Shown one piece after another: positions 26,039 through 52,300 of a stretch of DNA of 64,000 nt. Made by a program: the position numbers and the translations under genes. The stretch spans positions 10,920 through 74,919 of the forward strand of contig JAGCOW010000048.1 in NCBI GenBank assembly GCA_017642535.1, written 5' to 3'. Position 1 is the stretch's first letter. Every line of letters begins with the position of its first letter. This DNA is from Bacteroidales bacterium. GTDB taxonomy: Bacteria; Bacteroidota; Bacteroidia; Bacteroidales; UBA1715. Below the pieces are notes generated by a model, which saw nothing but the letters and a program-made list of their open reading frames with translations, had not been told where the DNA came from and did not search any database.

Positions 26039-26103
26039 GAAATGTGTGTTATAATGTAACATACTAAAAATCAATTATTTAATAAATTATATATTATATC
26101 CTA

Positions 26104-26123
26104 CTCACGTTTGCTCACGTTTG
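26104..26123 (+). repeat. Tandem 10-bp direct repeat CTCACGTTTG x2, candidate integrase arm-type sites
   Basis: Exact tandem duplication about 65 bp inside the att core; function inferred. Confidence 0.5.
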
Positions 26124-26125
26124 AT

Positions 26126-26160
26126 AAAAAAAAGACCTAATAACTTTTGGTTATTAGGTC
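26126..26160 (-). terminator. Terminator ending the late operon
   Basis: gacctaataac-N5-gttattaggtc hairpin with poly-U on the minus strand. Confidence 0.8.
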
Positions 26161-26170
26161 GCATTGAAAA

Positions 26171-27547
26171 CTATACATTGATTTCCTCATTGCCACCAAA
26201 TCGGTTTTTGACCGTTTTTGCTTTGAATGATTCAACTTCGATTGTTGTATCGACATCGTGTTCAAATTCTTGCGAGCCACGGAAATTACCATCCTTTGTG
26301 CATTGAAATACATATACGTATGATTTGCTGTTGTCGAGTTTCTTCAAATCTTCGGGTTCGTATTTTCCTGCTGTTACGGAATCAATAAAGATTACGTCAT
26401 AATCCTTAAAACTCGTAGGAAGTGTATCAGTGACGAATAAATTTCGGTGTGCTATGTTATAACGACGCATTTTTTCCTGCAACGTATAACCAAACTTTTC
26501 CTCGTGTGCCACGTAAAGAACTTTTTTACCAAGTTCAGCTAAATGCTGTGCGAATTGAAGAGACAAAGAACTCTTACCGTTACCGCCCTTTCCGTAAATC
26601 ATTATTTTGAATGGTTCCGATGGGTCGCCAATCAATTTTTTGAACTTTCCTTTCAAAGGCAAAATTTTGAACTTTGCTGCAAGAAATTCCGCACTACCAA
26701 CGGCTGAACCACTTTTACAACCTTTTAATTCGATACCACACAATCCGTACAAACCAGCCAACGATTGTGCCGATATTTCGGGAGCGTTACTTTTACCGTC
26801 GATATATTTGTTAAGACTGCGTTTTATTTCTTCTATTTCAGATTTGAAATGGTCGTCTTTAGACGCTTCAATCTTCTTTAACAGGTCTTTCGCTTTCTCT
26901 TTTACGTTTTCTTTGCCTTGAATTGCAATAAACGACTTAACAAGACGAATGTTTGGCATTACGGCAAATCCCTTTACAAGAGTTTTTAGCTCTTCAGCAT
27001 TTTGTATGTTAATTTCGCTATTGCCAGGAGCGTCAAGAATTTTTATGAGGTTTGACTGTAGTTTCATAACTTCGTCTGCATACGGCGATGTTTTCCGTAT
27101 TTTCTTTTCGACTATAGCTTTTTGAAGCGACGCAAGAATACGACGTGCTGTTTCACGTGCCTCGGAAACTTTTTTGCCGTTCAACGCACAATATCTCTTA
27201 ATATGTGCAAGTTCGGGACAAAGTGCCTCTACATATTCTCCCGAAAATTCTTTTTTTACTTTCGGTTGTTTTGGAGCTTTTGACTTCGGCTGTTTCTGCG
27301 TTTTTTGCTTTGATTCTTTTTTCTCCTTTGGTGTTGAATCTGTTTTTTTTGCTTCGAGTTCCTTGTTAACACGGTCGATAAACTTATTCAACAGGTCTTT
27401 TGCCTCGTCGTCGAAAAAGTCTTTCAAATCTTCCCAGTTCTGTGCGGATTCAAGAAAACCATTATCGGTTGCAATCTTGACCGTTTCGGGACTTAATATT
27501 AATTTAATCTCGTCCCATTTTTCGTTGATGTTAGTTATTGTAATCAT
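26171..27547 (-). CDS. Protein with C-terminal RadA/Sms-like (RecA-fold) ATPase
   Basis: Walker A GKGGNGKS, Walker B VIFIDS, FEHDVD and KNRFG; Lys-rich helical N-terminal half. Confidence 0.75.
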   Translation of the reverse strand: MITITNINEKWDEIKLILSPETVKIATDNGFLESAQNWEDLKDFFDDEAKDLLNKFIDRVNKELEAKKTDSTPKEKKESKQKTQKQPKSKAPKQPKVKKEFSGEYVEALCPELAHIKRYCALNGKKVSEARETARRILASLQKAIVEKKIRKTSPYADEVMKLQSNLIKILDAPGNSEINIQNAEELKTLVKGFAVMPNIRLVKSFIAIQGKENVKEKAKDLLKKIEASKDDHFKSEIEEIKRSLNKYIDGKSNAPEISAQSLAGLYGLCGIELKGCKSGSAVGSAEFLAAKFKILPLKGKFKKLIGDPSEPFKIMIYGKGGNGKSSLSLQFAQHLAELGKKVLYVAHEEKFGYTLQEKMRRYNIAHRNLFVTDTLPTSFKDYDVIFIDSVTAGKYEPEDLKKLDNSKSYVYVFQCTKDGNFRGSQEFEHDVDTTIEVESFKAKTVKNRFGGNEEINV

Positions 27548-27576: not shown

Positions 27577-30500
27577 TTAGATTTTTGCTTTTGCCATTTT
27601 CATCTTCAACATAAGTGCCAATGCACGCTTGCGTTTTGTGTCGGCAGAATCGCTACTGTTAGGTTGCTGTTTTCCTGTCGGAATTTTCGATTTATCTACT
27701 TTTAGCGGTTTCCATTCCCCTTTGTTTGCTTTCGTGTCTTCATTGTCGAAATCATTAGGGAAATAGTGTGCTGCCTGTTGTGCGTCCAATTCCACGTAGA
27801 TATTGTTATTTTCCAAATCCTGTAAGAAATCGTCAAGACTATCGTTAGGGAAACAACCAATAGCCAATACACGCTTGTAGCGATAATATGTTTGCTCAAA
27901 TCCACGACCAGTACCATATTTCAACCAAACAGAGTTTGTTGTTATTTGTTTGAGTTCCTTTTTCTTGGCAATATCGTTGTCTATGTAAACAATCAATTGT
28001 TCTCCTACGCATATCAACTTAAATCCAAAGCTCAATCCAAGTGCAGGTTCTTTTATGCTCTCATTGCGGTATTCCTCAAAAATCTTTTTACATCTCGTTG
28101 GTTTGTATCTTTTGAATGCAACCACAACACCGCCACCGTTTTTGTTTTCCGTGTCTTTCGGCAACAAAACCCCCTTGCGGATAGAGCCGTCTTTCATTGT
28201 AAACGAAATCAGTCTCGATTTTTCGGGTGCTTTCCCAAAACCTTTTAGTATGTTGCCTGTGATAATGTCACGGAGTTCACGGTTTGCAGACGCTTCTTTG
28301 GTAATCTTGTCCCAATCATCGAGAATACGTTTGTCGAGGTCTATGGAACTGCTATTGTTACGCCACAAATCTTCGGTGTAGTTTTGTATTGCCATAAGTT
28401 TTTCGTGTCCCTCGTTGGCAATATTGTAGTCGATTGAACGTGTAGAATTGGCAACGGCAAACGAAATGGTAATGTTGCTCGGAGCCATAGGGTTGTTTGC
28501 CTTTCGGTTCACGTCAGCACCAAGACATATCGCCTTTGTGTTCAAGTCAATCAAGCAACTGCGACCTGCATAGAAATACTCAATGATACGTGACTTATAG
28601 TTCTTTGTGTTCGTTTCGTTCTGCTTGCGTTCCGCCTGTTCCACGTACTTTTGCTCAACCTCACGTTGGATTTCGTCCCAAGTGCGTTCGCCAGATTCCA
28701 CAAGTTTTTGGAATTTTGGCGAGTTACGCATTGATTCAACAGCACGAACCTTTTGTTCCTCTATTTCGGCAAGTCGTTTGTCGCATTCCTTGCGTACTGC
28801 GTTTCTAAACTCGTCAGCAAGTTTCTTTGCCGTTTCCTTTGGCTCGTCCCCTGCTTTTGCAATAAGCGACAAAACAATCTCTTTTGTATATGGCTTGCGA
28901 AGTACATCGCATTCGTACACGCCCTTATATGCTGCATCGGCAAAAACTGACTGCCCACTCGTACGTGCAAGCAACGGAGTCTCACGGACAAACTCGGCAT
29001 TGAGTTTCATCGCTTCCACTTCCAAATCGTATTCGCCACGATTCTTCAACTGATTGATTTTCTGTTTGTAGTTTCCAATCACGTTGTTGTAAAAGTCCTC
29101 TTGTTTGCTCGATTCAAGAATAGCCACACGTCCTGTAACTTTCTTTGCAATATCCTCGTCGGGGACTGATTTTGCAACGGGTTTCGGAGTAAACAAATAG
29201 CAAGGGTCGCCAACTGCCATAGTAAATTCCTCGTTGTCACGCATATATGCTTTTACGACCTCGTCGCCATACTTGTTGATGAAATCGTCTGTGTCAATCA
29301 CGCTCGTCGAGTTCTTTTGGTTTGAAGCCGTATTTGCGTCGAGCGAACGGAGTTTCTTCTGTAACATCATCATCATACGTCGTTCGGCAGGAATAGCCGA
29401 AATAAGGTAGTCGTATGACGGTGGAATTTCGGGGAACTGACCTGTACGGTTGATTCGACCACGTTTTTGAACTTCCGTAGATACGTTCAGTTCATATTGT
29501 GCGATAACCATAACACGTGGCTTCACTTCCTCTCGTTTCAAGTTTGTCCCTTTATTGGTTGCGTGTGCCGACGCTCCTGTCGAGCCACTTGTGTTAATCA
29601 AAAGCACGTCGGATTGAGTGTTTTGGAACTTGGCAAATGCCACGTTTGCCTTTTCACGCTTACGGTTTACGATTCTTCCCCTCGTTCCCTGTTCGTTGGT
29701 AAACTCAATTTTACGTGAACGACCTGTAACTTCGGAACAAGTGAAGCCCTCACGTTCAATCTTACGGATTATTATGTCGATTGGAGAACAAGTGATTCCT
29801 GTCGTTGTGTTCTTTATCTTACGCTCAATGCGTAGATATTCCTCTTGTGCTTCGGGAATGAGTTCATCGAAATTCAAAATTTGCAGTTCCGATTTACCTT
29901 TTGCCACTTTCTTTTGATAGCGTAAAGTAGATTCAAGTCCACGCAACAAAGCAACAGAATAGTCGGTGTTGATTTCCTCGTTTTCAAGCGAATGGCGACC
30001 GTCATCAGCGTGTAAATCGCTAATCATTGATTCAAACGTGGAAGCGAACGCCACAACAACCTTTTTCCCTTCTTTCAATCTTCGTATAGTGTGGTCGGCA
30101 ACGGCTTCCGCCTTGATAGCGAACAACACTTGGTTTACTATGTTGAACACTTTCGAGAAATACGAAGCACGGCTAACGCCCAAATCCTTGTTGGTGCTGT
30201 CGGCTTTTTCTCCCTCGTCGGCAAGTTCCTCGTTCATATCGTCCATTATCGGACTGATGTACGCTTTCTCAAAGCCGATGATTTCGCGAATTAGTTCCGT
30301 AATGTTGTCGCTCATAATTCGGTGTTCTTTTTCGAGATTGGGAACGCCAAATTCCTTTTCTCCGTTCTCGTCGAGGTAAATGTAATTAACCTTGATACCG
30401 TCGTATGTGCGTTCCCGACGGAGCATTTGCCCCTCGTGTACCAATTCCGACGAAATGATTTCCTGTAACGCTTCGCCACCTTTTGAAATGGATTCAATCA

Positions 30501-31590
30501 GTTCAGCGTCGGGAAGTTCGGCTTCGGAAATACAGGTACGCAAAGCGAACAACGGCATATTGTCGGGGCGTTTTGCAAACGTAGCCGACAAGAAACACAC
30601 GTTTTTAGCAAGTTTAACGGCTTGTGCGAACGCTTGGAACGTGTTAGAGCCGACAACCGTAGATTTTCCACCTCTGTCAGTCCCTTTGGAACTACCACCT
30701 GCGTTGTGTGCTTCGTCGAGTATCAACGTGTTCGGCTCACAAATGGCGTGCAAGAAATCAATCTTTGCACCGTCACGCTTTGGCGTTGTGAACTGCGAAT
30801 ATGTTGCAAGCACGTAGTCGTAGCCGTCGGGAACACGCTTTGAGTTGATGATTGAATCGAACTGCTTTTTGTCGGTCATATACTTGTAAACCGTTACAAT
30901 TTCGTCGTTGTCGCCAACTTCTGTAATGTTCGCTTTCGGGTCGTTGTTGATGATGAACGGTTTTAACGAAGCACAGCCAATATCTTTCAAGTCACGGTAG
31001 ATGTCGGTAAACAAGTTCGGTTTTTCCGTTACAAAAACGGCTTTCTGTCCCTGTACGTGTGCGTAGCGGATAAGACACGCCGCCATACGACCTTTACCAA
31101 TACCTGTTTGGTCGCCAATGATGATTGCCTGTTTGCGTGCTTCCATATTGTAGATTGCGAGTGCAACCGAATCAACCTGTTCGGCAAACAGACGGTTTAC
31201 AATATCTTCCTTTGACCATTGCAGACGTTCACAAACAAAGTCGGTAACGTCGCCACCAACGGCAGTTTTCAGTTTAGCCAACGCTTCGTGTGTATCGTCG
31301 CCCATACTGTCGGGGACTTGCGTGTCGAGTTTCGTGATTTGTGACGCTGGTCGGTATGCCATACCAAGTCCTTCTTCAATTTTCTCTATCTTGTTGATTT
31401 CCTTGCCACGTAATTCCTGCGTTTTGGTTGTTTGCCAATTTTCGGGCAATGTCATTGACTTGCTTGCACGGATATAACGGACAACCGTCACGTTCAGTTT
31501 CATATCTGTTTCGGCTTCGGTGCAGAACCAAACCTTGTTCGGTTCTCCTTTAAGACGGAAAAAATGTCTTTGTATTTCAATTAACTTCAT
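27577..31590 (-). CDS. Strawberry-notch-like SF2 helicase (AAA_34 + Helicase_C_4), DarB-like
   Basis: GDQTGIGKGR, ATYSQ, LILDEAHNAGG, FLSATFAKRP, SGSTGASAHA, QKRGRINRTGQ motifs. Confidence 0.88.
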   Translation of the reverse strand: MKLIEIQRHFFRLKGEPNKVWFCTEAETDMKLNVTVVRYIRASKSMTLPENWQTTKTQELRGKEINKIEKIEEGLGMAYRPASQITKLDTQVPDSMGDDTHEALAKLKTAVGGDVTDFVCERLQWSKEDIVNRLFAEQVDSVALAIYNMEARKQAIIIGDQTGIGKGRMAACLIRYAHVQGQKAVFVTEKPNLFTDIYRDLKDIGCASLKPFIINNDPKANITEVGDNDEIVTVYKYMTDKKQFDSIINSKRVPDGYDYVLATYSQFTTPKRDGAKIDFLHAICEPNTLILDEAHNAGGSSKGTDRGGKSTVVGSNTFQAFAQAVKLAKNVCFLSATFAKRPDNMPLFALRTCISEAELPDAELIESISKGGEALQEIISSELVHEGQMLRRERTYDGIKVNYIYLDENGEKEFGVPNLEKEHRIMSDNITELIREIIGFEKAYISPIMDDMNEELADEGEKADSTNKDLGVSRASYFSKVFNIVNQVLFAIKAEAVADHTIRRLKEGKKVVVAFASTFESMISDLHADDGRHSLENEEINTDYSVALLRGLESTLRYQKKVAKGKSELQILNFDELIPEAQEEYLRIERKIKNTTTGITCSPIDIIIRKIEREGFTCSEVTGRSRKIEFTNEQGTRGRIVNRKREKANVAFAKFQNTQSDVLLINTSGSTGASAHATNKGTNLKREEVKPRVMVIAQYELNVSTEVQKRGRINRTGQFPEIPPSYDYLISAIPAERRMMMMLQKKLRSLDANTASNQKNSTSVIDTDDFINKYGDEVVKAYMRDNEEFTMAVGDPCYLFTPKPVAKSVPDEDIAKKVTGRVAILESSKQEDFYNNVIGNYKQKINQLKNRGEYDLEVEAMKLNAEFVRETPLLARTSGQSVFADAAYKGVYECDVLRKPYTKEIVLSLIAKAGDEPKETAKKLADEFRNAVRKECDKRLAEIEEQKVRAVESMRNSPKFQKLVESGERTWDEIQREVEQKYVEQAERKQNETNTKNYKSRIIEYFYAGRSCLIDLNTKAICLGADVNRKANNPMAPSNITISFAVANSTRSIDYNIANEGHEKLMAIQNYTEDLWRNNSSSIDLDKRILDDWDKITKEASANRELRDIITGNILKGFGKAPEKSRLISFTMKDGSIRKGVLLPKDTENKNGGGVVVAFKRYKPTRCKKIFEEYRNESIKEPALGLSFGFKLICVGEQLIVYIDNDIAKKKELKQITTNSVWLKYGTGRGFEQTYYRYKRVLAIGCFPNDSLDDFLQDLENNNIYVELDAQQAAHYFPNDFDNEDTKANKGEWKPLKVDKSKIPTGKQQPNSSDSADTKRKRALALMLKMKMAKAKI

Positions 31591-31601: not shown

Positions 31602-33758
31602 TTAGAGTTTTATTTTAGTCATTTTCATTTTGAGCATTAGTGCTTTAGCCTTTTTGCGTTTATCGTCTGAATTGTCTTGTTTCGTTTCAATAAACGGATA
31701 AAGGCGGTCAAAAAGTTGGTCGAATGTCGTTAAAATAGTGTCTTGATATGGGTCGAAAACGTAGCGAGGTTTGTTTGATTCGTCGTATTCGTGCCTACCG
31801 TCAATCAAAATAACGACTATTGGATAGGTAGTACCTTGCTTTTGATAGATGTGGTCGCCGTCGATATAAATAACGTCAACCACGTTGTATTGGGCATACA
31901 GATACCCAAGAAATGTTTTCCATTGACCAAACAACACCTGTTTGCTTGACCTTTCATTAAGCGGTTTCCAATAGGCATTCCAAAGTTTACCGCCGACAAT
32001 TACAGCCGCCTTTCCGTCGTTGTGCATTTTGTCGAGTGCGAGAACCGCCATTTTATAGTCAAGCGTGTTTATTTTCCAACCGTGACGCTCTATCTTGTCG
32101 TTTTCGTTTAGTTTTGCAAATGGTGGGTTTGTCATTATTCCCCGAAACGCCTTGTCGGGAAATATGGCTAACTCCAAATTGCTTGACGCATTTTGATTGG
32201 TCACGCTTGAGAAGCCAAGATTTTTTAGGTTTGCCACACGAATTTCGTCAAGTTCGTTCACACAAACCTGTTGTGGTGGAAATGCAATGGTAAGCAAGCC
32301 GTTTCCTGCCGACGGTTCCAAAATTTTGCCATTACAAAATTTGTCATTCTTACCGACAAAACGCCCAAGCAGATACGACAATGGGCAGGGCGTTGAGTAT
32401 TGCTGAAGAACTTTGCTTTTTGTATCGAGTGGGCGAATTGTTACCTGTCGCTCGTACAGGTCTTTCATTTCCTCGTATTGCTGACGGAGAGAGTTACCGT
32501 TATTTGCTATACGACGTGCTTCGAGAACAACGCCCAATTCGCACGCCTGCATTATTTCTGTCTCGGTTTCAATATCGAAATCCTTTGCTATCTTCTTTGC
32601 TTTGAGCCAATCAAGTTTTTCGCCTTTGCTGTAAAGTTCTGATAGGTGTTGTGCAAATTTGAATGTGCCAGTTTCTGTTAATTGTTTTGGTTCATTGTTA
32701 TCTTTGTAAACTTTTTTGATAGTGTCAAGTAATTCATTTTCTATATCTAAAAGGTCTATGCCTTTTATGATTCTATATTTTTCAACAATTATGTGAAAAT
32801 CATTACGTATATCATCTTCGTTAAATGCTTTAGTTTTGCCTCCATAAACTGATTTGATTTTCGAAATGAGTCGAGATTCATTCTTTGCTATATAATTGAA
32901 AAAACTTTTTTCGTTAATCAATTTCAATCTCTCATTGTCGTTTTTATCGTATGAGCCTAAATTTTCTTGTGAATCTGTTTGATTTTCAGAATCTTTTTCT
33001 ATATTTGCATTGTCAATCAATGACAAAAGGTATTCAGACTGCACGGAATTGAACCGAGAGCCCCTGAATACCTTTTTTGCTTTATCTTGATTTGCCATTA
33101 GCAAGAATCCATCTTCAACCCATTTAGTAATTTGATTTACTCTTCGTCCGTGAATACTTGCTATTTCGTTGATTAAAATTTTATTCGCTGATTTATTGGT
33201 ATGTAAGGAAACACATAAAACACCCTCGTCATTTGATTTTTCAACAATAATGTTATATGCACCAGCAATTGTTTCTGACTTAAATACAAATATTGGCGAA
33301 TTTATATCTGTATTAAGGTTTTTAAGATGTTCTTTTTTTAATGAATGTAATTCAATTTTCTCAAACAGAGTTCTTTTGTTTATCATTATTGGCAAATTTG
33401 GAATACCGCAATCAAGTAAAATCTTTTTGGGCATTGTTACTCCAATAAATCTTCCTACAAATGTATTTGCAAAGAACTGGTTTAATTGATTTCTAAAATT
33501 GAACTTTATCTTTTCATCAGTTTTCCCCAAATCGCGTGATAACAAGTAGTCATCGTACTTCATTCCGTGTTCTTTCAACGAACACTTGTCACGTTTTGCT
33601 TTTAATTTTTCTAACCGATTGTACAGGTATAGTGGTCTTTTTTTATGCTGCCCATCGTACCTGTCGAAGGCTTCAAAAATTTCATCTATGCCATCATTAC
33701 AGTCTGTAATATCGGTACAATTGGACGCTATGGTATATGGAGATAGTTTTCTTTTCAT
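31602..33758 (-). CDS. Polyvalent protein: PBECR/MuF-C-like domain + N6-adenine methyltransferase
   Basis: QYSTP, LEPSAGNG and NPPF methylase motifs; N-terminal P..L..CGIPNLPI...PIFVFKS...INEIASIHGR resembles PBECR. Confidence 0.75.
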   Translation of the reverse strand: MKRKLSPYTIASNCTDITDCNDGIDEIFEAFDRYDGQHKKRPLYLYNRLEKLKAKRDKCSLKEHGMKYDDYLLSRDLGKTDEKIKFNFRNQLNQFFANTFVGRFIGVTMPKKILLDCGIPNLPIMINKRTLFEKIELHSLKKEHLKNLNTDINSPIFVFKSETIAGAYNIIVEKSNDEGVLCVSLHTNKSANKILINEIASIHGRRVNQITKWVEDGFLLMANQDKAKKVFRGSRFNSVQSEYLLSLIDNANIEKDSENQTDSQENLGSYDKNDNERLKLINEKSFFNYIAKNESRLISKIKSVYGGKTKAFNEDDIRNDFHIIVEKYRIIKGIDLLDIENELLDTIKKVYKDNNEPKQLTETGTFKFAQHLSELYSKGEKLDWLKAKKIAKDFDIETETEIMQACELGVVLEARRIANNGNSLRQQYEEMKDLYERQVTIRPLDTKSKVLQQYSTPCPLSYLLGRFVGKNDKFCNGKILEPSAGNGLLTIAFPPQQVCVNELDEIRVANLKNLGFSSVTNQNASSNLELAIFPDKAFRGIMTNPPFAKLNENDKIERHGWKINTLDYKMAVLALDKMHNDGKAAVIVGGKLWNAYWKPLNERSSKQVLFGQWKTFLGYLYAQYNVVDVIYIDGDHIYQKQGTTYPIVVILIDGRHEYDESNKPRYVFDPYQDTILTTFDQLFDRLYPFIETKQDNSDDKRKKAKALMLKMKMTKIKL

Positions 33759-44372: not shown

Positions 44373-44907
44373 ATTCTATGTATATTTTTACTTTGTAGTT
44401 GTTGCTAACATAGCCCGATTCCATTGGGTGATAGGCACTACGTTTCAAGTTTGGTTCAGAATCACGCTCTTCAACAATAATCGTTAGCGTGCTTCCACCT
44501 TTGAGTTCAATAGATTCAGACAACTCTATTTTGTTGTTGGCGAACGTGCTGTCGTATCGTAGGTTGTTCGCTCCAAGTGTTGTCGATGAGTTCATATTCA
44601 ATGCGACAAGCGGTGTTCCTGCGAGAATTGTCTTTGTGTTGTTTACAGAAATCGATACGTTTCCAATCTGTATGCTGTAGAAATCGTTCCACTCAATAGT
44701 AGTTCCTCCTTGACCGCTCTCCACTTTTTTTCTGTTTCTGTCGGGAAGCATTCTTTTATCGTGCCCCTTTGCCGTTAGACCATTGAGAACGGCGAAACAG
44801 CAAATCGACTTGATATTGCGTACTTTCGACGGAATATTCACAGTGCGTTGGAACACGTTGCCCCACTCACTTCTATTAGGAACTTCTATTTCTGCTATGT
44901 ACAACAT
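44362..44907 (-). CDS. Putative jelly-roll-like minor capsid protein
   Basis: Strand pattern IKSICCF..GNVSISVNN..GSTLTIIVE..YKVKIYIE parallels neighbouring genes. Confidence 0.45.
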   Translation of the reverse strand: MLYIAEIEVPNRSEWGNVFQRTVNIPSKVRNIKSICCFAVLNGLTAKGHDKRMLPDRNRKKVESGQGGTTIEWNDFYSIQIGNVSISVNNTKTILAGTPLVALNMNSSTTLGANNLRYDSTFANNKIELSESIELKGGSTLTIIVEERDSEPNLKRSAYHPMESGYVSNNYKVKIYIEYDR

Positions 44908-44912
44908 ACTTT

Positions 44913-45293
44913 TTATTCGTTTTCAAGCACAACGTATATATTTACTTTTATAGCTTCCGAAGAGCTGTTTGACAACACCAGTTCAAATTCGCTTGAACGT
45001 GCTGGAATGTTATCTTTTGAGAAATCGTACACTACTTTGTCACGTTCCACGTTGCCGTTGAATGTTACAATTGATGCGTCAGTTCCTTTTGGCAATATCT
45101 CGTTTCCTGCAATTTTTAGAAACAAACTGATTGGCGACAAGTCCTTTTTGTTTGCAGCAAAAGGCACGATGAAGAATCCTGTTGCTTTTGCATATTGTTC
45201 TTTCAATTGGTCAGAAATCACAAGTTCGCCGTCGTTGCCGTCGGCACGTGCTGGAACTTCTTGTCCACGCCATATTTGGTAACTCTTTTTCAT
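44913..45293 (-). CDS. Putative jelly-roll-like minor capsid protein
   Basis: EILPKGTD is shared with EILPPNTD of the 417-aa neighbour; all-beta pattern. Confidence 0.5.
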   Translation of the reverse strand: MKKSYQIWRGQEVPARADGNDGELVISDQLKEQYAKATGFFIVPFAANKKDLSPISLFLKIAGNEILPKGTDASIVTFNGNVERDKVVYDFSKDNIPARSSEFELVLSNSSSEAIKVNIYVVLENE

Positions 45294-46548: not shown

Positions 46549-46578
46549 TTTTTCAGTCGGTTTGTTGAATTGATAAAT

Positions 46579-46614
46579 AAAAAAGGGCGTGCGGCGTAAT
46601 CCTCACGCCCTTTT
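46579..46614 (-). terminator. Terminator downstream of the putative major capsid gene
   Basis: AAAAGGGCGTG...CACGCCCTTTT stem, U tract on the minus strand. Confidence 0.8.
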
Positions 46615-46648
46615 CGTAAAAACCTAAATTTATTATTATGACGGAAAA

Positions 46649-47239
46649 TTAGGCTTTGTTGGTTTTAACACCGTAGAATACACATTTGATGAATGTGTTA
46701 TTCGTTGTTTCGTCGCAAGGTGCGGCTAAATACAATGTAGGAATAATATCCGACAACGGAGTTACCATTTTTGGAGAATCGAATGCTACATATCCAACCA
46801 ACTTGTCAGAATACTGACTTGTGCGGAATGCTTCGCAAGACGAACGAGGCATTAAAATGCGGTCGCCTTGTTTCAGTTCGATTTCACCATTTGCAATCGT
46901 TTGGTCGATTTTACCGTAATCAGCTGCGGCAACAGCTTCGTCAGTTGTTCCACGTGTTTTTGCAGCTGAAGATTGAAGCAACTGCATACCTGTGAACAAG
47001 GCATATTCGTTAGCTTCCAATTTACGGCTGTTTACGTTAGTTACACCTACTTTCTTTTTGTCGGCGGACTGCATCAACTCGATAGTTGTGTTAGTGCCGA
47101 TGTAACGTGCAGCATACATAGAGTAATCTACGAGTTGCACAACCTTGTTTTTCAATGCCGATTGCATTTCGACCGAAACTTGACCGATACGTGCTGCGAA
47201 TTCTTCTTTTGCAGCTGCTATTTTTACTACGTTTTCCAT
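46649..47239 (-). CDS. Putative single-jelly-roll major capsid protein
   Basis: 196 aa, beta-rich; VGVTNVNSRKL..FTGMQL, NGEIELK and C-terminal CVFYG; followed by its own terminator; fold is inferred. Confidence 0.55.
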   Translation of the reverse strand: MENVVKIAAAKEEFAARIGQVSVEMQSALKNKVVQLVDYSMYAARYIGTNTTIELMQSADKKKVGVTNVNSRKLEANEYALFTGMQLLQSSAAKTRGTTDEAVAAADYGKIDQTIANGEIELKQGDRILMPRSSCEAFRTSQYSDKLVGYVAFDSPKMVTPLSDIIPTLYLAAPCDETTNNTFIKCVFYGVKTNKA

Positions 47240-47275: not shown

Positions 47276-47815
47276 TTACACGAAGTCAAATCCATTAACC
47301 AATGAATAGTCAGCATCACCGACCACGCCCATCATATTGCTTGGGTCGGGATGAACGACCTGCAACTCGTTGTTGTCAGGTAATTGGTCGTAGTTTGTGA
47401 TTTCCACAGTTTCGCCAACACCCGGCATAATCGGAGTTAATGGTTTATCATCATCATTACCGCTCAAAGCGATTTTAGTTTCACCAGCGATTGCGTTTAC
47501 AAGGTTTACACCACCTGCTGCGCCAATGCCAAGAGCAACCGTTTTCAAAGTGTCGTTCTTAACTGCTGCGTGAGTAACCAAGCCAACACCAATCATTGCT
47601 GCTGGAACCACAAACTTCGATGATGTTCCGTCCAAGCCCAAAAGGTCAGTTCCCGAAACAGCATCTTTCTTTTGCACGAATTTTTGTACCATAGTACCGA
47701 CTGCGATACCTGCTACAAGTGCAGCACCTTTTTTAGCATAGTTTGCTACGCCACCCATAGAGAAAGTCTTCGGGCTTTTAGTGCTGCGTCTTTTACGTTT
47801 TTTAGACTCTGCCAT
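47276..47815 (-). CDS. Putative virion membrane protein
   Basis: Basic N-terminus, 2-3 Gly/Ala-rich hydrophobic helices, acidic tail. Confidence 0.55.
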   Translation of the reverse strand: MAESKKRKRRSTKSPKTFSMGGVANYAKKGAALVAGIAVGTMVQKFVQKKDAVSGTDLLGLDGTSSKFVVPAAMIGVGLVTHAAVKNDTLKTVALGIGAAGGVNLVNAIAGETKIALSGNDDDKPLTPIMPGVGETVEITNYDQLPDNNELQVVHPDPSNMMGVVGDADYSLVNGFDFV

Positions 47816-47840: not shown

Positions 47841-48302
47841 CTATTGTAATGCGAGCACTTTCTTGCCCGATTTCTTACTTTTCTTACTTGTTTTTTTAGA
47901 TTTTTTTGGCTTCTTCGTACCGTTCAATGCAGCCGTTGCTGTTTTGCCCGATGCAGATGAAACACTTTTCTTCTTGTTGCCGTCAATTAACGAGTAAATG
48001 AGACAACCGCCAGCAACAACACCCAAGCAAATTGCTCCGATTTTGATGCCTCTCTTTGCCTTTTCTGATAGATTGATGTTCATAAATCCTTTCTTTTTAG
48101 TTTGACCTGTTATTTGTTTGAATAATTCTTCCGAACAAGTTGTTACATTGTACAGATTCTTCAACGCTGTTTCGGTTGCATTCCAAAACTTTCCGTCTGC
48201 CTCAACGCCTAATGCGGTCTGCAAGACCTTGATGTTTTCGCCCTGCATTCCCTTTGCAAGTGGAAAACTTTCTGCCGTGTACGATGTTGGTGTATTTGCC
48301 AT
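47841..48302 (-). CDS. Peptidoglycan-binding domain protein with TM helix and Lys-rich tail
   Basis: LAKGMQGENIKVLQTALG..ADGKF..ATETAL (PG_binding_1 pattern). Confidence 0.7.
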   Translation of the reverse strand: MANTPTSYTAESFPLAKGMQGENIKVLQTALGVEADGKFWNATETALKNLYNVTTCSEELFKQITGQTKKKGFMNINLSEKAKRGIKIGAICLGVVAGGCLIYSLIDGNKKKSVSSASGKTATAALNGTKKPKKSKKTSKKSKKSGKKVLALQ

Positions 48303-48314
48303 AGTTATAATGTA

Positions 48315-51131
48315 TTAGTTATCTTTATTTCGAGTTAGTAAAATCGCACCACCAATCAGAACCGCAGCACCTATACCTATTCCTAAAATAAGTTTTGTAT
48401 TGTCTTTCGTTGCCGAGTTGTCGGTTTGCTCATTGTTGCCCTGCGTAGCGTCGCCGCCCGAATATCGTTGCGACATATTAGCAACCGCCGTCGTGACGAG
48501 TGCCTTTCCTGTCTCCTTGATGTTCTGAGCCGCTTGGCTGCTTGCTATATTCTTGACTGTATCTTTTGCGTTCGATGTAAAGTTCTTAACACGTTCCTTC
48601 AACGGAGTTTTTTCTCCACTGGCAATCTTCGCTTGTCGGTTTTCCTTGAAATTCTGTATTCTGTTTTTCAAAGGAACTTTCTCGCCACTTGCTATTTTTG
48701 CCTGTCGGTTATCTTTTATTTTTTGTACGGTGTTCTTAACGGCGTTCTTAATCTTGCCGCTTGCAAACACTTTTTTCAAACCACCGAGGATTTTTGCCAA
48801 AATTCCACCTGCCGAAGCTGCACCGCTCGCTACCGTAGCTTCGGTTACAACTCCAAGACCATTTACAATGTAACCGTTCTCGATTAGTCCGAGGATTCCC
48901 TCTACTGCAACTTCAACCTCTTCACGTGTTTCGCTGTACGTAACATTCGGGTCGTTGCTCGATGTTGCACCTGCCTTTTTCAATTCGGCTTCGTCTTGGT
49001 CGTATTCAGAATCAATTGATTTTTTGTTTTTAAGAGCGGCTGCGGTAAGTTCCTTTACAGACAATTCGTCGCTTCCTTTCCAAACTTTTTTAGAACCTTT
49101 TTCGAGATTTTTTTTCAGCTTCGATTCCTTACCGCCTATTTTGGTAAAACTCTTTACAAGTTTATCGTAAGCATCTTTCGACGCTTTATATTGTTCAGAG
49201 GAAAGACCGAGTTTCGCCGCATCCGATTCACTCATAGTTCCCGGATACATACGTTCCGCCATTTTGAACATATTGAGCGAACAAGCCATAAGGATTATGG
49301 CACGTGCCACAAGTGTAACGGGATTGTACTTAACAACAAATTTCACTATCTTCTTTACGGCTTTCTTAACTGCTTGTGCAGTTTTCTTTGCCGCAGTTGC
49401 GACTGCCTTTCCTGTTTTCTTTGCAGCTGTCTTTACAGCATTTCCAGTTTTTTTAGCGGCCGTCTTTATGGCACTGCCTGTCTTTTTTGCTGCTTTCTTT
49501 ACTGCATTTCCAACCTTTTTGAAAAATTTCTTTCCAAGAGAATGTTTTTCCGCTTCGGCAATACGTTGTGCAAGTTTCGCCTTGAGCGTAGTATTTTTAG
49601 CAGCTTTCTGCAAAGATGCTTTCATAGCCGAAAGTTTCTTCGTCTTTTTAATACTTGCCTTACGTGCTTTCTTTACTGGCAATGATATTTTTGCAACGGC
49701 AGCACCAAGACTGTCGGCAAAATTCTCGTATTGCTCGTAATTCATTCCTGTACCGCATAACTTTTCAACGGCATCTGCGTTGTCCCAGTTGTTGATTGCG
49801 TAGCCAAGCAAACCACGAACATTCTCCAATTCGTCGGTGTCTTCAACATACAGTGCTGGATTTTCGTTAACTATTGCAAGCGTGTTTGCAAGAAGCTGTT
49901 TTGTGTCGTCGGTAGAACCGAGACCAACGCCGTTGAGCGTGCGTTTGATTACAGCTTTCTTTACCGCCGCATTGTTATTTACAGGTTTTACCATCGGATT
50001 GATTTTAGCAGCCGTTGGCAACGATTTTCCACCGTCTTTCTTCGATTTCTTCAATGCTTTGAAAAACGAGCGGATGCGACCTTGACGCTTCATAGCTCCA
50101 AGTCCCTGCATAAAATCATAGTATTCGTCATCGTTCATTCCGTCGCCCGAAAGTTGTGAAATCACAACGTCGAACGCTGGAGTTCCGAGATTCAACAACG
50201 CATATTCCAACGCACCAACCGTAACATCTTCGTTGTTGCGTGTCGCAAACAATTCATCGGAATGACGTTCAACGGCACGTGTTGTAGATTGTAGGTAGTT
50301 TTTAATCGAATCTCCGTCAACTCCGTTCAAGTTTTCGTAGAAATCGAGACCAAGCAAAACCGACTGAACATCGTCGTCGAAACCGTTGAGACCGCTCACG
50401 GCAGTTGCTACGTTTTGCGTAATAACCTTTGATTGTTTTGTAGCCTTGTCGGTTACAAGCGATTTCTTTGCTTTGCGGCTTTCCGCAATTTTTTTACGGA
50501 GATTGTTTTTTATCTTGTTAAGATACGGATTCGAGTTTACCACCTCGTTGGCATCTTTCGATATGTTTGCGTTGTTGTTAAGTTTCTTGATATTACGGAA
50601 GAAACCTGTCTTGCCTTTCTTTACCTTAATTGCTTTCTTTATTCCTTCTGTGGTTGCAACCGTACCAATTTCCTCGTATTCATCATTGTCGATAGGTTCA
50701 TCAACGCCAACCAAATCAACATCGTCGGCATCGTCGGCAAGATTTACCTTGATTGCACCAAGTCCAATCAATCTTTCTTCCTCTGCAACCATAGCGTCTA
50801 ATGCAGCCTCACGGTTTGCCGTGTCCCAATGTTGAAGCACGTAGCCCAACATTTTAGAGAAATCCTGCGGATTTTGGTAGTCGCGAATCGACTGCGGGTA
50901 TTTGTCGGCAACAATTTTTGTACGCACCAAATATGAACGGAGTTTTTCGGAATCTTCAACACTTCCGTCGCCTTGGAAACCTGCAAGGTCGTAGCCGTTA
51001 ACCAACGTGTCGATATTCTCTATCGTGTCGTTGTCGTATCCACGCAACACATCGGCAACAAGTTGAACCGTGTTGTCGTCATTATCAACGCCGTGAAGAA
51101 ATTCCAATGGTATGCCGTTTAATTCTTTCAT
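48315..51131 (-). CDS. 938-aa putative internal virion/DNA-delivery protein with C-terminal TM anchor
   Basis: Three YL..T...L.Y....W/L repeats, five 11-aa KxAAKKTG repeats, a 23-aa duplication, terminal LILGIGIGAAVLIGGAILL. Confidence 0.55.
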   Translation of the reverse strand: MKELNGIPLEFLHGVDNDDNTVQLVADVLRGYDNDTIENIDTLVNGYDLAGFQGDGSVEDSEKLRSYLVRTKIVADKYPQSIRDYQNPQDFSKMLGYVLQHWDTANREAALDAMVAEEERLIGLGAIKVNLADDADDVDLVGVDEPIDNDEYEEIGTVATTEGIKKAIKVKKGKTGFFRNIKKLNNNANISKDANEVVNSNPYLNKIKNNLRKKIAESRKAKKSLVTDKATKQSKVITQNVATAVSGLNGFDDDVQSVLLGLDFYENLNGVDGDSIKNYLQSTTRAVERHSDELFATRNNEDVTVGALEYALLNLGTPAFDVVISQLSGDGMNDDEYYDFMQGLGAMKRQGRIRSFFKALKKSKKDGGKSLPTAAKINPMVKPVNNNAAVKKAVIKRTLNGVGLGSTDDTKQLLANTLAIVNENPALYVEDTDELENVRGLLGYAINNWDNADAVEKLCGTGMNYEQYENFADSLGAAVAKISLPVKKARKASIKKTKKLSAMKASLQKAAKNTTLKAKLAQRIAEAEKHSLGKKFFKKVGNAVKKAAKKTGSAIKTAAKKTGNAVKTAAKKTGKAVATAAKKTAQAVKKAVKKIVKFVVKYNPVTLVARAIILMACSLNMFKMAERMYPGTMSESDAAKLGLSSEQYKASKDAYDKLVKSFTKIGGKESKLKKNLEKGSKKVWKGSDELSVKELTAAALKNKKSIDSEYDQDEAELKKAGATSSNDPNVTYSETREEVEVAVEGILGLIENGYIVNGLGVVTEATVASGAASAGGILAKILGGLKKVFASGKIKNAVKNTVQKIKDNRQAKIASGEKVPLKNRIQNFKENRQAKIASGEKTPLKERVKNFTSNAKDTVKNIASSQAAQNIKETGKALVTTAVANMSQRYSGGDATQGNNEQTDNSATKDNTKLILGIGIGAAVLIGGAILLTRNKDN

Positions 51132-52195
51132 AAATCAAGATATTTTGATGTTGTTTTTTCGGTGAAACAAGTGTCGAGAACAGGGTCGCACACGTAGTAA
51201 CCGCCAGTGTATGGGACAATCACATACACGTGCTGGTAGTATGGCTTACCGTTGTATGCCGCAATACGGAACTTGAACGGTATGTTAAGATTCGTTAGTA
51301 TAGACCCAATAAGCGTAGCGTAGCAGTCGCAATCGCCTTTTTGGTCGTAGAGAGTACGCAACGGACGGCGGACTTGTTCTTTCAGTTTGTTATCGGGAAC
51401 ATATTGGATATGCTCGTACACAAAATCGAAAATCGCCTGTATTGTATCTTTCAGATTGTCACGTTTCAAAGTCTTTGCCAATTCCGCTGTGTCGGATGCG
51501 TAGTTTGTTGCTACCTTGTGCATAAGTGCCACGGTGTCGTTCACGGTTGCATCGGGAATAACAATCAGACCTTGCTGTTTAAGTTCCGACTGCGGCGGAA
51601 TAAGGTGCTGGTACTCTTTGAGTGATTTAAGCGTACGCACCTTGTTCGCCACCAATCCCAAACCCGAAACTGTTTTACCGTTATTAGGATTTACCTTGTT
51701 GGTTTCTCCAAATTTCTCTGTAAATTCATACACAAGTGTATTGTTGATTATGCAAGTAACATCAGCGGTTATTTTCTTTACTATCTCGTTGTAGTTTTGA
51801 GTAGTAATGAGCGATTGAACCATTGCACCTGCGACTTGGACAAGATTCGAAAGTGGAATAGACACAACAATGTTCGACAACGTGCTTTTTGCGTTCTTCT
51901 TAATAAGAACCTTTTGCGTATTTGGTTTAAGAGAGCCAACTACTACATTGTTGTACTTTAATATTACATTGGATATTGATATTGTTACTTCCTGTTCGGT
52001 ATTATTCTCGAAATCGAGAGCTACAGGAATATTGAGTGCGGAATTTTTGAAGTTGATTCGTTTTACACCTCCGTCAATACGTGGAGTAATCATCAATTGC
52101 TCTACAAAAGAAACAAGAGACTTGCCTTTGAGTAGCAACCAACCGCCAGCTAATCCAGCTGCCAAAAACAATATTGTTTTAATTCCTTTCCCCAT
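51128..52195 (-). CDS. TM + LEA_2-like domain + transglutaminase-fold cysteine protease
   Basis: IFDFVYEHIQY, GDCDC, HVY and CDP give a Cys-His-Asp triad. Confidence 0.8.
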   Translation of the reverse strand: MGKGIKTILFLAAGLAGGWLLLKGKSLVSFVEQLMITPRIDGGVKRINFKNSALNIPVALDFENNTEQEVTISISNVILKYNNVVVGSLKPNTQKVLIKKNAKSTLSNIVVSIPLSNLVQVAGAMVQSLITTQNYNEIVKKITADVTCIINNTLVYEFTEKFGETNKVNPNNGKTVSGLGLVANKVRTLKSLKEYQHLIPPQSELKQQGLIVIPDATVNDTVALMHKVATNYASDTAELAKTLKRDNLKDTIQAIFDFVYEHIQYVPDNKLKEQVRRPLRTLYDQKGDCDCYATLIGSILTNLNIPFKFRIAAYNGKPYYQHVYVIVPYTGGYYVCDPVLDTCFTEKTTSKYLDL

Positions 52196-52230
52196 ATCGG
52201 GGGCAATGTTACAACTCCCGATTTTGGCGA

Positions 52231-52300
52231 TTTACCTTTTTTTACCTTTTCTTACCTCTTTTTACCTTTTCTTACCTTTTTGGAACTTTTTTTACCTTTT
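52231..52300. repeat. Seven phased 10-bp units (consensus TTTACCTTTT) upstream of the late operon
   Basis: tttacctttt, tttacctttt, cttacctctt, tttacctttt, cttacctttt, tggaactttt, tttacctttt. Confidence 0.9.

Follow-up and report, generated by a model that had tools for sequence, protein, structure and literature searches.

What kind of particle is encoded by a rumen Bacteroidales provirus that carries a DGR in a long late operon? The original prediction, made from the letters of the DNA, was of a tailless, membrane-containing virus. We analysed the window (the whole stretch of 64,000 nucleotides) and compared its genes with those of relatives and of SSIP-1, a phage of a salt-lake bacterium and, to our knowledge, the only large tailless phage with a membrane known so far. 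We find that the element is a temperate provirus integrated in tRNA-Lys, and that it is probably not a tailed phage but a tailless, membrane-containing virus with a DGR.

Results

Integration site and early region

The provirus starts at window position 26039 and ends in L002, where position x corresponds to window position 63000+x. This numbering places the end at about 66525 and gives a length of 40.5 kb. The element lies between 47-bp att repeats in tRNA-Lys.

25992..26038, no strand: attL, 47-bp copy, 3' part of tRNA-Lys
L002 3526-3603, outside the window: attR and intact tRNA-Lys

Window 25992-26038 matches L002 3526-3572 exactly over all 47 bp, and the latter is the 3' part of the tRNA-Lys(CTT) gene (L002 3530-3603). 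The att site thought to bound the operon is thus real. The 401-aa ORF adjoining the tRNA is an integrase (Phage_int_SAM_5, E 4e-13); the PF00589 profile has no match in it. Beyond position 64000 we find the lysogeny module, this integrase and the intact tRNA-Lys and nothing else, with no head or tail genes among them. An independent bovine-gut run (X7) contains a diverged relative at the same att, which we count as a sign of a real, possibly active virus. The early region adjoins the late operon.

52306..52653, minus: HNH endonuclease, 115 aa
52715..63751, minus: early/replication region, including many ORFs without a match
53097-53555, minus: crAss001_48-like protein
54013-55002, minus: C5 methylase
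55752-56852, minus: Lin1244-type replication protein
57321-58124, minus: methylase

The late operon and its DGR

The co-oriented late operon consists of 22 consecutive minus-strand ORFs of 105-1337 aa that tile window 26171-52195. The main features are given in reading direction.

51128..52195, minus: 355-aa protein with N-terminal anchor, cluster-c9-like and transglutaminase-like domains; homologue of SSIP-1 gp34
48315..51131, minus: 938-aa K/A-rich protein, two hydrophobic segments
47841..48302, minus: 153-aa membrane protein, sub-threshold PG_binding_3 match
47276..47815, minus: hydrophobic protein, 179 aa (cluster c4); homology to the gp44 family of SSIP-1
46649..47239, minus: candidate major capsid protein, 196 aa; homology to the gp45/gp46 family of SSIP-1
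46575..46615, minus: intrinsic terminator behind the 196-aa gene
45295..46548, minus: 417-aa protein with an insert rich in Q/W/E; C-terminal part weakly c2-like (hhalign 32%)
44010..45293, minus: three small proteins of 120 aa (c12, E 0.002), 181 aa (c11, E 0.04) and 126 aa (c2, E 1.6e-10)
42872..43987, minus: 371-aa coiled-coil protein (relatives' cluster c13, E 1.5e-4)
40138..42867, minus: 909-aa protein, no family match
38236..40122, minus: 628-aa DGR target, containing the VR (39706-39801, aa 108-139)
37892..38233, minus: 113-aa ORF lying between TR and target gene; matches neither Avd nor any other family
37748..37840, minus: DGR template repeat (TR)
36349..37644, minus: DGR reverse transcriptase (RT), 431 aa (phrog_1423, E 2e-96)
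34882..36336, minus: three small ORFs (105, 176 and 115 aa), presumed lysis accessory region
34346..34879, minus: endolysin, 177 aa (Phage_lysozyme E 2.6e-40), N-terminal hydrophobic segment
33771..34313, minus: 180-aa lysine/alanine-rich basic protein, no family match
31602..33758, minus: 718-aa polyvalent-type protein with MuF_C domain
27577..31590, minus: 1337-aa Strawberry-notch-type helicase (AAA_34 and Helicase_C_4)
26171..27547, minus: 458-aa ATPase, C-terminal domain RadA/Sms-like (Walker A, KNRFG); homologue of SSIP-1 gp40

Hydrophobic segments (Kyte-Doolittle mean of at least 1.6 over 19 aa) occur in 5/22 late ORFs, namely the 355-, 938- (two), 153- and 179-aa proteins and the endolysin. 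The original prediction was right about several TM proteins and about the endolysin, but several of its finer labels were not confirmed: 'annexin-like' and 'LEA_2' have no Pfam match among the window ORFs, 'PG-binding' goes back to PF09374 at E 0.022, under its cut-off, and 'histone-like' had K/A-rich composition as its sole basis. The coiled-coil product of the 115-aa ORF weakly resembles spanins and a DUF6549 cluster. Paralogy links clusters c2 and c11 (hhalign 93%), and the 417-aa protein has 21 homologues, none of them named. From its size and position, the 909-aa protein is presumed to be a spike or host-recognition protein.

The terminator behind the 196-aa gene was not picked up by a pattern scan, but folding of 46549-46652 (minus strand) revealed a 12-bp G+C stem followed by TTTTTTATTT, with a z of -4.06 that was equalled by 0/200 shuffles. 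This gene therefore has its own terminator, as had been proposed, and a terminator of this strength is a further feature that we regard as a sign of a real, possibly active virus. The DGR is complete, with RT, TR and VR. All 13 mismatches between TR and VR fall at TR adenines, and the VR is 3 nt longer than the TR. We count these adenine-only mismatches, too, among the signs that the virus is real and possibly active. The 628-aa target is presumed to be a receptor-binding protein.

Search for tailed-phage genes

At the curated cut-offs of Pfam and PHROG, terminase, portal, HK97 capsid, tape measure and sheath were found in 0/22 late ORFs, in agreement with what had been noticed at the outset, and in 0/10 further ORFs up to 56852. 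Neither the window nor the region just past it yielded terminase, portal or HK97 genes, and six-frame searches of the whole host genome with Terminase_6N and Phage_capsid gave 0 matches. Below threshold we observed phrog_9483 'tape measure' in the coiled-coil part of the 371-aa ORF (E 0.003), the PF06810 scaffold on the same ORF (E 0.004), phrog_4577 'tail protein' over 27 aa of the 628-aa ORF (E 1.5e-4) and Sheath_initiator inside the lysozyme (E 0.004). In the elements of four relatives, Pfam revealed none of the hallmarks among 78 ORFs, which gave SLT, Amidase_2, RadC, SNF2 and methylase. Three TerL families had a single match in the genomes of five relatives, on a contig other than that of the element. 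One relative (G296) measures about 22 kb in all, integrase counted.

The 196-aa protein family

The family of the 196-aa protein comprises 431 representatives at 50% identity and is present in 20/400 other genomes of the order. The window holds a second member.

61507..62055, minus: 182-aa protein (A2 profile E 4e-23; 27% identity to the 196-aa protein)

PHROGs and Pfam match 0/138 scanned family members, the 196-aa protein and gp45 have no PDB match, and tblastn with the 196-aa and 417-aa proteins gave no match in 50,697 phage records. Profile-profile comparison links the family to gp45/gp46 (hhalign 88%, E 3e-6), and this match grew with profile depth. The small profile c3 rose from 61% with 13 sequences to 88.2% (E 2.9e-6) with 39 distinct sequences. 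Against the same two profiles, the 138-row alignment A2 climbed from 31% to 88.5% (E 2.7e-6, 132 columns). All 21 control clusters stayed at or below 0.8%. The link is detectable at this level alone: with a gp45-family HMM the window's 196-aa and 182-aa proteins were not among the best 10 of 5,787 host ORFs, and among 700 relatives' ORFs the best three were 196-aa family members at E about 0.1. Judged by these profiles, gp45/gp46, a pair of structural paralogues in SSIP-1, are homologues of the 196-aa protein. From their paralogy, we infer that these are the two major capsid proteins of SSIP-1; the 196-aa protein may have a single jelly-roll fold. ESM Atlas clusters of the family bear automatic 'Uroviricota' labels on the few members with known phylum.

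A core shared with SSIP-1

In the SSIP-1 record (JN880423), gp34, gp40, gp43, gp44, gp45 and gp46 are all annotated as 'structural protein'. Among the 50,697 phage records, SSIP-1 was the sole one matched by the transglutaminase protein (gp34, E 3e-7); the family profile reaches gp34 at E 1.3e-16, with no other host-genome ORF at E <=0.01. The ATPase family profile matches gp40 at E 3e-21 and 68.6 bits, compared with 51.2 bits for the host's own RadA, and the best PDB match of the ATPase is RadA (53 bits). Cluster c4 matches the gp44 family (hhalign 85%, E 6e-6), and the order gp44-gp45 equals the order c4-196. The slot of the 1337-aa helicase is filled in relatives by SNF2/methylase giants that match gp43, a protein with methylase and ParB domains. 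The 718-aa and 1337-aa proteins resemble each other at their C-terminal ends, with 16/24 identical positions in the final 24 aa.

ATPase and transglutaminase/938 protein recur in 10/10 fetched loci of relatives, and in most relatives the 938-aa counterpart is fused behind the transglutaminase domain. The 196-aa family was found by BLAST in 7/10 loci; in the other three the ORF runs across the locus edge and was matched in a separate search. The two groups are bridged by SSIP-1-like proviruses from a different Bacteroidota class: in the five that were fetched, genes match both profile sets, namely gp40 and c0 (1e-28 to 1e-35), gp43 and c8 (down to 5e-47), gp44 and c4 (2e-8 and 4e-8), and gp34 and c1. 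Among 120 other profile pairs, values above 10% were reached by syntenic pairs only, barring one 20-column coiled-coil match. Detectable counterparts exist here for only 5/13 SSIP-1 proteins annotated as structural, and none was found for gp47, which is kept in all five SSIP-1-like proviruses.

The protein gp40 has been described as the predicted packaging ATPase of SSIP-1 (PMC4124505). The ATPase here is RadA-like, not FtsK/HerA-like, and in two SSIP-1-like proviruses (L076, L078) it is fused to the polyvalent protein, and thus an injected DNA-handling protein would fit better than a packaging motor. The transglutaminase, ATPase and polyvalent proteins belong to a cargo class that moves between phages and conjugative elements, and could be shared without a common capsid.

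Discussion

We consider it rather probable that the element is a temperate provirus with an SSIP-1-related late operon, whose particle would be a tailless icosahedral shell around an internal membrane. The absence of tailed-phage genes and the homology in five genes speak for the tailless, membrane-containing virus with a DGR that had been predicted. The annexin, LEA_2 and PG-binding labels were not confirmed. Virion shape and internal membrane, and likewise the choice of the proteins that package DNA or are injected, are putative assignments derived from sequence comparison.

The late operon would be read from 52195 to 26171 on the minus strand. Its first products may be the membrane-anchored virion proteins, the transglutaminase-like 355-aa and the K/A-rich 938-aa protein (gp34-like), followed by the 153-aa and the gp44-like 179-aa protein. 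Next would come the abundant gp45/46-like shell protein of 196 aa, with the strong terminator after its gene, then the small paralogous proteins (417, 126, 181 and 120 aa) with the coiled-coil protein, and then the two large putative host-recognition proteins of 909 and 628 aa. RT and TR would rewrite residues 108-139 of the latter by adenine-specific mutagenesis and so vary host recognition. The lysozyme cassette would release the particles. The MuF_C polyvalent protein, Strawberry-notch helicase and RadA-like ATPase at the operon end probably travel with the DNA; in SSIP-1 their counterparts are gp43 and gp40, both virion proteins.

A very divergent tailed phage, with terminase, portal and HK97 capsid beyond the reach of all profiles, is an improbable explanation. 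The MuF_C domain belongs to tailed-phage head proteins and does count against a tailless particle, and the HNH endonuclease adjoining the late operon, the crAss001_48-like gene, the sub-threshold 'tail' and 'tape measure' PHROG matches and the 'Uroviricota' labels point the same way. However, the late ORFs of at least 400 aa are all K/A-rich, repeat-rich, beta-rich receptor-like, helicase or RadA-like ATPase proteins, and those of the G296 module are transglutaminase-anchor, polyvalent and ATPase proteins only, with an amidase endolysin kept. Moreover, no scanned member of the 196-aa family matches PHROGs, and the phage whose virion proteins are matched by five core genes, SSIP-1, has been described as tailless. 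Quite improbable is a satellite or defective element that uses the capsid of a helper phage and shares cargo, not capsid genes, with SSIP-1. It would account for the lack of a recognisable packaging enzyme, and the shared ATPase, polyvalent and transglutaminase proteins are typical mobile cargo. Yet the element brings lysis genes of its own and large receptor-type proteins, one of which is the target of its DGR, along with gp44- and gp45-like genes, which encode structural proteins in SSIP-1; TerL searches gave no match in 4/5 relatives' genomes (three families) or in the host genome (Terminase_6N alone).

A membrane virus that is not icosahedral, for example pleomorphic or enveloped, with the 196-aa protein as a membrane-associated matrix protein, is likewise unlikely. 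Many anchored proteins at the start of the late operon, the lack of an FtsK-type packaging ATPase and a 196-aa fold known from no structure would suit it, but the homology to SSIP-1, for which an icosahedral T=49 capsid has been described (PMC6260650), and a lysozyme cassette suggestive of lytic release argue against it. Very unlikely is a non-viral integrative element, conjugative or another transfer device, that shares cargo genes with SSIP-1. Polyvalent proteins, RadC, SNF2/methylase and RadA-like ATPases are common in conjugative elements and are seen here or in relatives; however, relaxase, VirB4 and Tra families are absent from the window ORFs and the 78 relatives' ORFs, an endolysin occurs here and an amidase in one relative, the DGR is aimed at a surface-type protein, and gp44 and gp45 homology is present.

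The tailless, membrane-containing virus that we favour can be set beside several known systems. Like Hankyphage and other DGR-bearing Bacteroides phages, it is temperate, has a Bacteroidales host and directs its DGR at a protein presumed to bind the receptor. Hankyphage, in contrast, is a transposable tailed phage (PMC12135933), and the 196-aa and 417-aa proteins remained unmatched in the phage records. With PRD1 and PM2, which are double-jelly-roll, membrane-containing phages, the element shares a late operon with many small membrane proteins and virion-type wall-degrading enzymes (SLT in relatives, the transglutaminase-like peptidase here). The nearest Pfam-bearing Atlas clusters carry P2_N/P2_C, which we take to be PM2 coat domains, at a score of 0.75 that often arises by chance, but among the families listed the P2_N/P2_C models were unmatched by the 138 family members. 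PRD1 and PM2 genomes are of 10-15 kb (PMC6260650).

SSIP-1 has been grouped with the Thermus phage P23-77/sphaerolipovirus group of tailless phages with an internal membrane and two capsid-protein types (PMC4958249, PMC5332951). That group has two vertical single-jelly-roll capsid proteins, and the 196-aa family likewise occurs twice in the window. Here, however, the two members lie 14 kb apart and not side by side, no capsid protein of solved structure could be linked to the element by sequence, and the ATPase is RadA-like.

The closest comparison is SSIP-1 itself, described as a tailless icosahedral phage with an internal membrane (PMC6356626, PMC4958249, PMC6260650), with T=49, 44 kb of circular dsDNA and two MCP types (reviews PMC6356626, PMC4958249, PMC5332951, PMC6260650), and listed in the NCBI taxonomy as an unclassified dsDNA phage. 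We found no published description of gut-bacterial relatives of SSIP-1. Genome size class (40.5 kb here, 43.8 kb there), the host phylum Bacteroidota (in the GTDB sense) and the lack of tailed-phage hallmarks are alike, as are the homologues of gp34, gp40, gp43 (by domain and bridging proviruses), gp44 and gp45/46, with gp44-gp45 order kept. By contrast, the similarity of the shell-protein candidate is visible profile against profile only, and 8/13 annotated structural proteins of SSIP-1, gp47 included, lack a counterpart here. The ATPase domain is N-terminal in gp40 and C-terminal here, and the polyvalent protein lies downstream of the ATPase there and upstream here. Unlike SSIP-1, the element is a temperate one that has an integrase and an att site in a tRNA gene; it carries a DGR, and its source is an animal gut, not a hypersaline habitat.

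Results

The window corresponds to positions 10920-74919 of contig C65, in a genome of 2.78 Mb and 96 contigs, and the remainder of that contig was examined as well. Past the window end lies a tRNA-Lys(CTT) gene whose 3' 47 nt are exactly duplicated inside the window, which makes the element a provirus of 40.5 kb. In the following list, L002 is the stretch whose position x equals window position 63000+x.

Features of the provirus and its surroundings
Window 16278-22511, plus strand: 2077-aa ORF in the host flank, immediately left of the provirus
Window 25992-26038: copy of the 3' 47 nt of the tRNA-Lys gene
Window 26039 to about 66525: provirus
Window 26171-52195, minus strand: late operon, tiled by 22 ORFs in a row; more minus-strand ORFs reach 63751
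Window 27577-27648, minus strand: C-terminal 24 residues of the 1337-aa helicase
Window 31602-31673, minus strand: C-terminal 24 residues of the 718-aa MuF_C protein
Window 37748-37840: DGR (diversity-generating retroelement) template repeat (TR)
Window 39706-39801: variable repeat (VR)
Window 46649-47239, minus strand: 196-aa protein, candidate major capsid protein
Window 61507-62055, minus strand: 182-aa second member of the same family
L002 284-1623 (window-equivalent 63284-64623): plus-strand helix-turn-helix repressor-like ORF, then a small HicB/HicA-like antitoxin-toxin pair, as read from translations
L002 3526-3572: 3' 47 nt of the tRNA-Lys gene
L002 3530-3603: tRNA-Lys(CTT) gene

The integrase is a 401-aa ORF beside the tRNA gene that matches Phage_int_SAM_5 (PF13102, E 4e-13). 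The catalytic-domain model PF00589 gave no match on this ORF; in our own reading of the translation its C-terminus reads like an R...H...Y-type motif. Only small ORFs lie between the window end and the integrase, and the host genes past the tRNA look ribosomal-protein-like in translation. The sequence beyond 64000, to which the original prediction had pointed for an integrase, a tRNA-Lys and any head-tail genes, holds the first two and no head or tail genes. Annotation with both Pfam and PHROGs covered 32 ORFs (26171-56852), with PHROGs applied to 10 more.

Gene products with Pfam/PHROGs matches
RecA-type ATPase, 458 aa
Strawberry-notch helicase, 1337 aa
MuF_C polyvalent protein, 718 aa
Lysozyme
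HNH endonuclease
crAss001_48-like protein
Transglutaminase-like domain in a 355-aa protein
Two DNA methylases
Lin1244-type replication protein

Over their C-terminal 24 residues, the helicase and the MuF_C protein share 67% identity (E 4e-4); this stretch may be a common tag that could, for instance, direct the proteins into particles. Hydrophobic segments occur in 5 of the 22 late ORFs, which is suggestive at most for a membrane.

At the Pfam/PHROGs cut-offs, searches of the window ORFs with sequence profiles recognized no terminase, portal, HK97 capsid, tape measure or sheath, confirming the claim of a complete, co-oriented late operon that lacks these hallmarks. The endolysin assigned to this operon was likewise recovered as the lysozyme match, and the terminator placed behind the 196-aa gene is a strong intrinsic one. 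Sub-threshold matches to 'tail', 'tape measure', 'scaffold' and 'sheath initiator' families fall on coiled coils or on about 27 residues. A six-frame search of the whole host genome gave no match to Terminase_6N or Phage_capsid.

Relatives of the provirus share a conserved core. In about 40 kb taken around each of 10 family matches, every locus contains the ATPase together with the transglutaminase and 938-aa proteins, the latter two mostly as one fused ORF. BLAST recovered the 196-aa family in 7 of the 10; in the other three, matched earlier, the ORF is truncated by the locus cut. The window's 179-, 126-, 181-, 120- and 371-aa proteins map in the same order onto the relatives' clusters c4, c2, c11, c12 and c13, of which c2 and c11 are paralogous (hhalign 93%). 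One relative, G296, totals about 22 kb and reads integrase, 166-aa protein, transglutaminase-anchor protein, c4, 196-aa family protein, c2, c11, c12, coiled coil, 371-aa protein, SLT and further genes, continuing after SLT with a 184-aa protein, DUF6549, Amidase_2, methylase, RadC, a 321-aa protein, a 1304-aa helicase protein and the ATPase. An element of this size includes an endolysin but could not also accommodate a terminase, portal, capsid and tail. Pfam on 78 ORFs from four relatives' elements found RadC, SNF2/ResIII, Eco57I and N6 methylases, SLT, transglutaminase, DUF6549 and AAA_24, and none of the tailed-phage hallmarks. Three TerL families gave a single match in five relatives' genomes, located on a different contig. 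DUF6549 (E 1e-44) is kept between SLT and the amidase in relative L034 (5063-5878) and in two others; our literature search found no paper that mentions it.

[quoted passage not shown] Among 50,697 phage records, gp34 of this phage is the sole tblastn match of the transglutaminase protein, and the ATPase has one match only, in an unannotated 636-kb uncultured phage record. Against the SSIP-1 proteome, the ATPase family profile matches gp40 (E 3e-21, 68.6 bits) and the transglutaminase profile gp34 (E 1.3e-16). When the 5,787 host ORFs were searched together with SSIP-1, the host RadA reached 51.2 bits, less than gp40, and the transglutaminase profile had no match among host ORFs outside the provirus. 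The gp40 protein and the window ATPase carry an identical Pfam set (AAA_25, KaiC, AAA_24), and gp43 (2319 aa) contains methylase and ParB domains. The SSIP-1 annotation lists gp34, gp40, gp43, gp44, gp45 and gp46 among the structural proteins.

Further links run through proviruses of another Bacteroidota class. The paralogous gp45 and gp46 match the same ORFs of roughly 203 aa in 11 and 10 of 401 Bacteroidota genomes, respectively, all outside the host's class, and a profile of their family was found in 34 of 361 genomes of that other class, some with tandem pairs. Five SSIP-1-like proviruses from this class, taken at 31-40 kb each, match both SSIP-1 and Bacteroidia profiles: gp34 with the transglutaminase cluster c1, gp40 with the ATPase cluster c0 (1e-28 to 1e-35), gp43 with the polyvalent/SNF2-methylase family c8, for which these proviruses provide the link (down to 5e-47), and gp44 with c4 (2e-8, 4e-8). 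The gp44 family aligns with c4 at hhalign 85%. For the shell protein, a 13-sequence gp45/46 profile reached 61% (E 8e-5) against the 9-sequence relatives' profile c3 and 31% against A2, a 138-row alignment of the 196-aa family, with 22 other profiles at or below 0.5%. A profile of 39 distinct sequences raised this to 88.5% against A2 (E 2.7e-6, 132 columns) and 88.2% against c3, with 21 control clusters at or below 0.8%. The deeper the SSIP-1-side profile, the stronger the link became. Colinearity of the alignment extends across almost the entire domain, and the neighbours gp44-gp45 and c4-196-aa protein stand in matching order.

These two links emerged once families had been built on the SSIP-1 side. 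Taken singly, SSIP-1 proteins showed no similarity to the 196-aa family, by hhalign either, and gp44 as a single sequence reached 0.35% against c4. Among 700 ORFs of the relatives, the top three matches of the gp45-family HMM were family members, at E about 0.1; among host ORFs, the window's two members were not in its top 10. A homologue search with a gp45-like provirus protein returned that protein only. For the other SSIP-1 proteins with a structural annotation, gp1, gp37, gp41, gp47, gp48, gp53 and gp57, there was no match by blastp, phmmer or hmmsearch, and hhalign of gp37, gp41, gp47, gp48, gp53 and of the further SSIP-1 ORFs o33, o35, o36, o54 and o56 gave no link save a 20-column coiled coil between c13 and o33.

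The 196-aa family itself is large. Grouped at 90% identity it forms 16 clusters, and at 50% it has 431 representatives in a library of 1.8 billion proteins. It is found in 21 of 401 genomes of the order (20 of 400 besides the host) and in 11 of 401 genomes of a phylum-wide sample, where all 10 besides the host belong to the host's class. In 138 members, PHROGs matched no family, and the Pfam matches, with E allowed up to 5, were isolated, scattered and below threshold. PDB profile searches with A2, the further profiles A1 and A5, and gp45 had no match, and neither Pfam nor PDB sequences linked the family to a double-jelly-roll capsid of the PRD1/PM2 type. No relative turned up in IMG/VR with either the 196-aa protein or A1 as query, and neither the 196-aa nor the 417-aa protein had a tblastn match among the phage records. 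The ESM Atlas, which has no model for the window's protein, offers a confident one for its homologue P0012 (pTM 0.81), with unnamed clusters of the same family as its only structural neighbours. By features, the closest Pfam-bearing Atlas clusters are P2_N/P2_C at a score of 0.75, a level often due to chance. Atlas clusters of the core protein bear automatic tailed-phage labels. A Chou-Fasman profile of A2, a crude and weak indicator, shows an N-terminal helix followed by about 8 strand-like segments, which a jelly roll would allow.

The DGR named in the original prediction has all its essential parts. Its reverse transcriptase matches phrog_1423 (E 2e-96) and RVT_1 (E 2.5e-20), and TR and VR differ at 13 positions over 93 nt, all 13 at TR adenines. 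The VR is 3 nt longer, with the extra nucleotides within a run of AAC-type codons, and codes for aa 108-139 of a 628-aa target. An Avd-like accessory protein was not recognized; a 113-aa ORF has no family match in PHROGs or Pfam.

The late module is present, whole or in part, in 20 listed runs from 11 animal-gut studies, of which four may represent the source sample; four runs were examined in detail. The VRs of X1 and X3 are identical to that of the window, and both runs may be the source sample. The independent bovine-gut run X7 contains a diverged relative at the same att site, with contigs that leave 39251-40086, including the VR, uncovered. In the RNA library X17, contigs cover several late genes at 90-99% likeness, which is not proof of transcription. 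One X17 contig (window 37174-37838) runs from RT/TR straight into sequence like the VR flank, most likely an assembly across the TR/VR repeat. Loose contig ends at 26038 were considered as a sign of excision; they consist of attR/tRNA sequence only and hence give no evidence of it.

Discussion

Gut and rumen viromes are interpreted almost wholly in terms of tailed phages and small ssDNA phages. A provirus family that is common but has none of the markers by which phages are called and classified would be miscounted or mislabelled in such surveys. We describe here a provirus that carries homologues of gp34, gp40, gp43, gp44 and gp45/46 and in this respect is SSIP-1-like. That it represents a tailless virus related to SSIP-1 is, on these comparisons, the probable reading. 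As far as sequence profiles can tell, the large terminase, portal and HK97-fold capsid by which Caudoviricetes are recognized seem to be missing. The proposal of a tailless, membrane-containing virus stands in its direction, with five core genes homologous to SSIP-1 virion proteins, while the structural specifics, a single-jelly-roll capsid and an internal membrane, are putative. A membrane would be expected by analogy with SSIP-1 and from the anchored proteins that head the operon.

SSIP-1 has hitherto been treated as a salt-lake orphan. One source describes it as membrane-containing, of PRD1-type architecture and with two types of major capsid protein, and states that its genome 'hardly shares any similarity' with GenBank (PMC6356626); a table entry elsewhere gives about 100 nm, T=49, a circular dsDNA of 44 kbp and 'single jelly roll?' (PMC6260650). 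In the NCBI taxonomy it stands under unclassified dsDNA phages. A literature search, to which most subscription journals were out of reach, turned up neither a description of relatives of SSIP-1 from gut or rumen bacteria nor one of a DGR in a tailless phage. We propose, as a view that could equally turn out right or wrong, that SSIP-1 is the sole cultured member of a widespread Bacteroidota lineage with one branch common as proviruses of the class Bacteroidia, Bacteroidales of rumen and gut among them, that these viruses build tailless, membrane-lined capsids from a shell family of roughly 200 aa outside Pfam and PHROGs and use a RadA-like ATPase where other non-tailed dsDNA viruses have an FtsK-type one, and that the present member is the first non-tailed virus seen with a spike-retargeting DGR. 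The link to SSIP-1 gives an experimentally described orphan virus many relatives, alignments deep enough to model the shell protein, and hosts that can be cultured anaerobically. Two-MCP viruses of the sphaerolipovirus type encode two single-jelly-roll capsid proteins next to each other. Tandem pairs of the shell family occur in SSIP-1 and some SSIP-1-like proviruses, and one copy was found in each of the seven relatives' loci where the ORF was recovered (about 40 kb fetched each). The window's 182-aa member shares 27% identity with the 196-aa protein and lies 14 kb away in the 'early' region; it may represent either another type of capsid protein or a recombination relic.

The role of the ATPase can be read in two ways. 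Its SSIP-1 counterpart gp40 is listed as the predicted packaging ATPase (PMC4124505). The window protein is RadA/Sms-like, with RadA structures 5lkm and 8rxc as best PDB matches at 53 bits and a KNRFG motif. In two relatives of one genome it bears an N-terminal RadC-like JAB domain (L036 11016-13559, L038 10797-13238), and in two bridging proviruses a gp40-type ATPase is fused to the N-terminus of a gp43-type polyvalent protein (L076 1390-4854, L078 1284-6464). The polyvalent protein always adjoins the ATPase. Together, the RadA-like class, these fusions and this adjacency fit a packaging motor no better than a protein that travels in the particle and handles DNA. Two mechanistic questions arise: how a 40-kb genome would be packaged with neither a terminase nor an FtsK-type ATPase, and whether a tailless virus can have its vertex spike diversified by a DGR.

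The DGR layout and the ATPase of the provirus depart from those of known systems. The usual DGR layout has a C-type-lectin target with a C-terminal VR and an Avd protein, whereas here the VR lies near the N-terminus of the target and no Avd match was obtained. In viruses of the Varidnaviria or sphaerolipovirus type a packaging ATPase of the FtsK/HerA type is expected, whereas the only P-loop ATPase apart from the helicase is RadA/KaiC-like.
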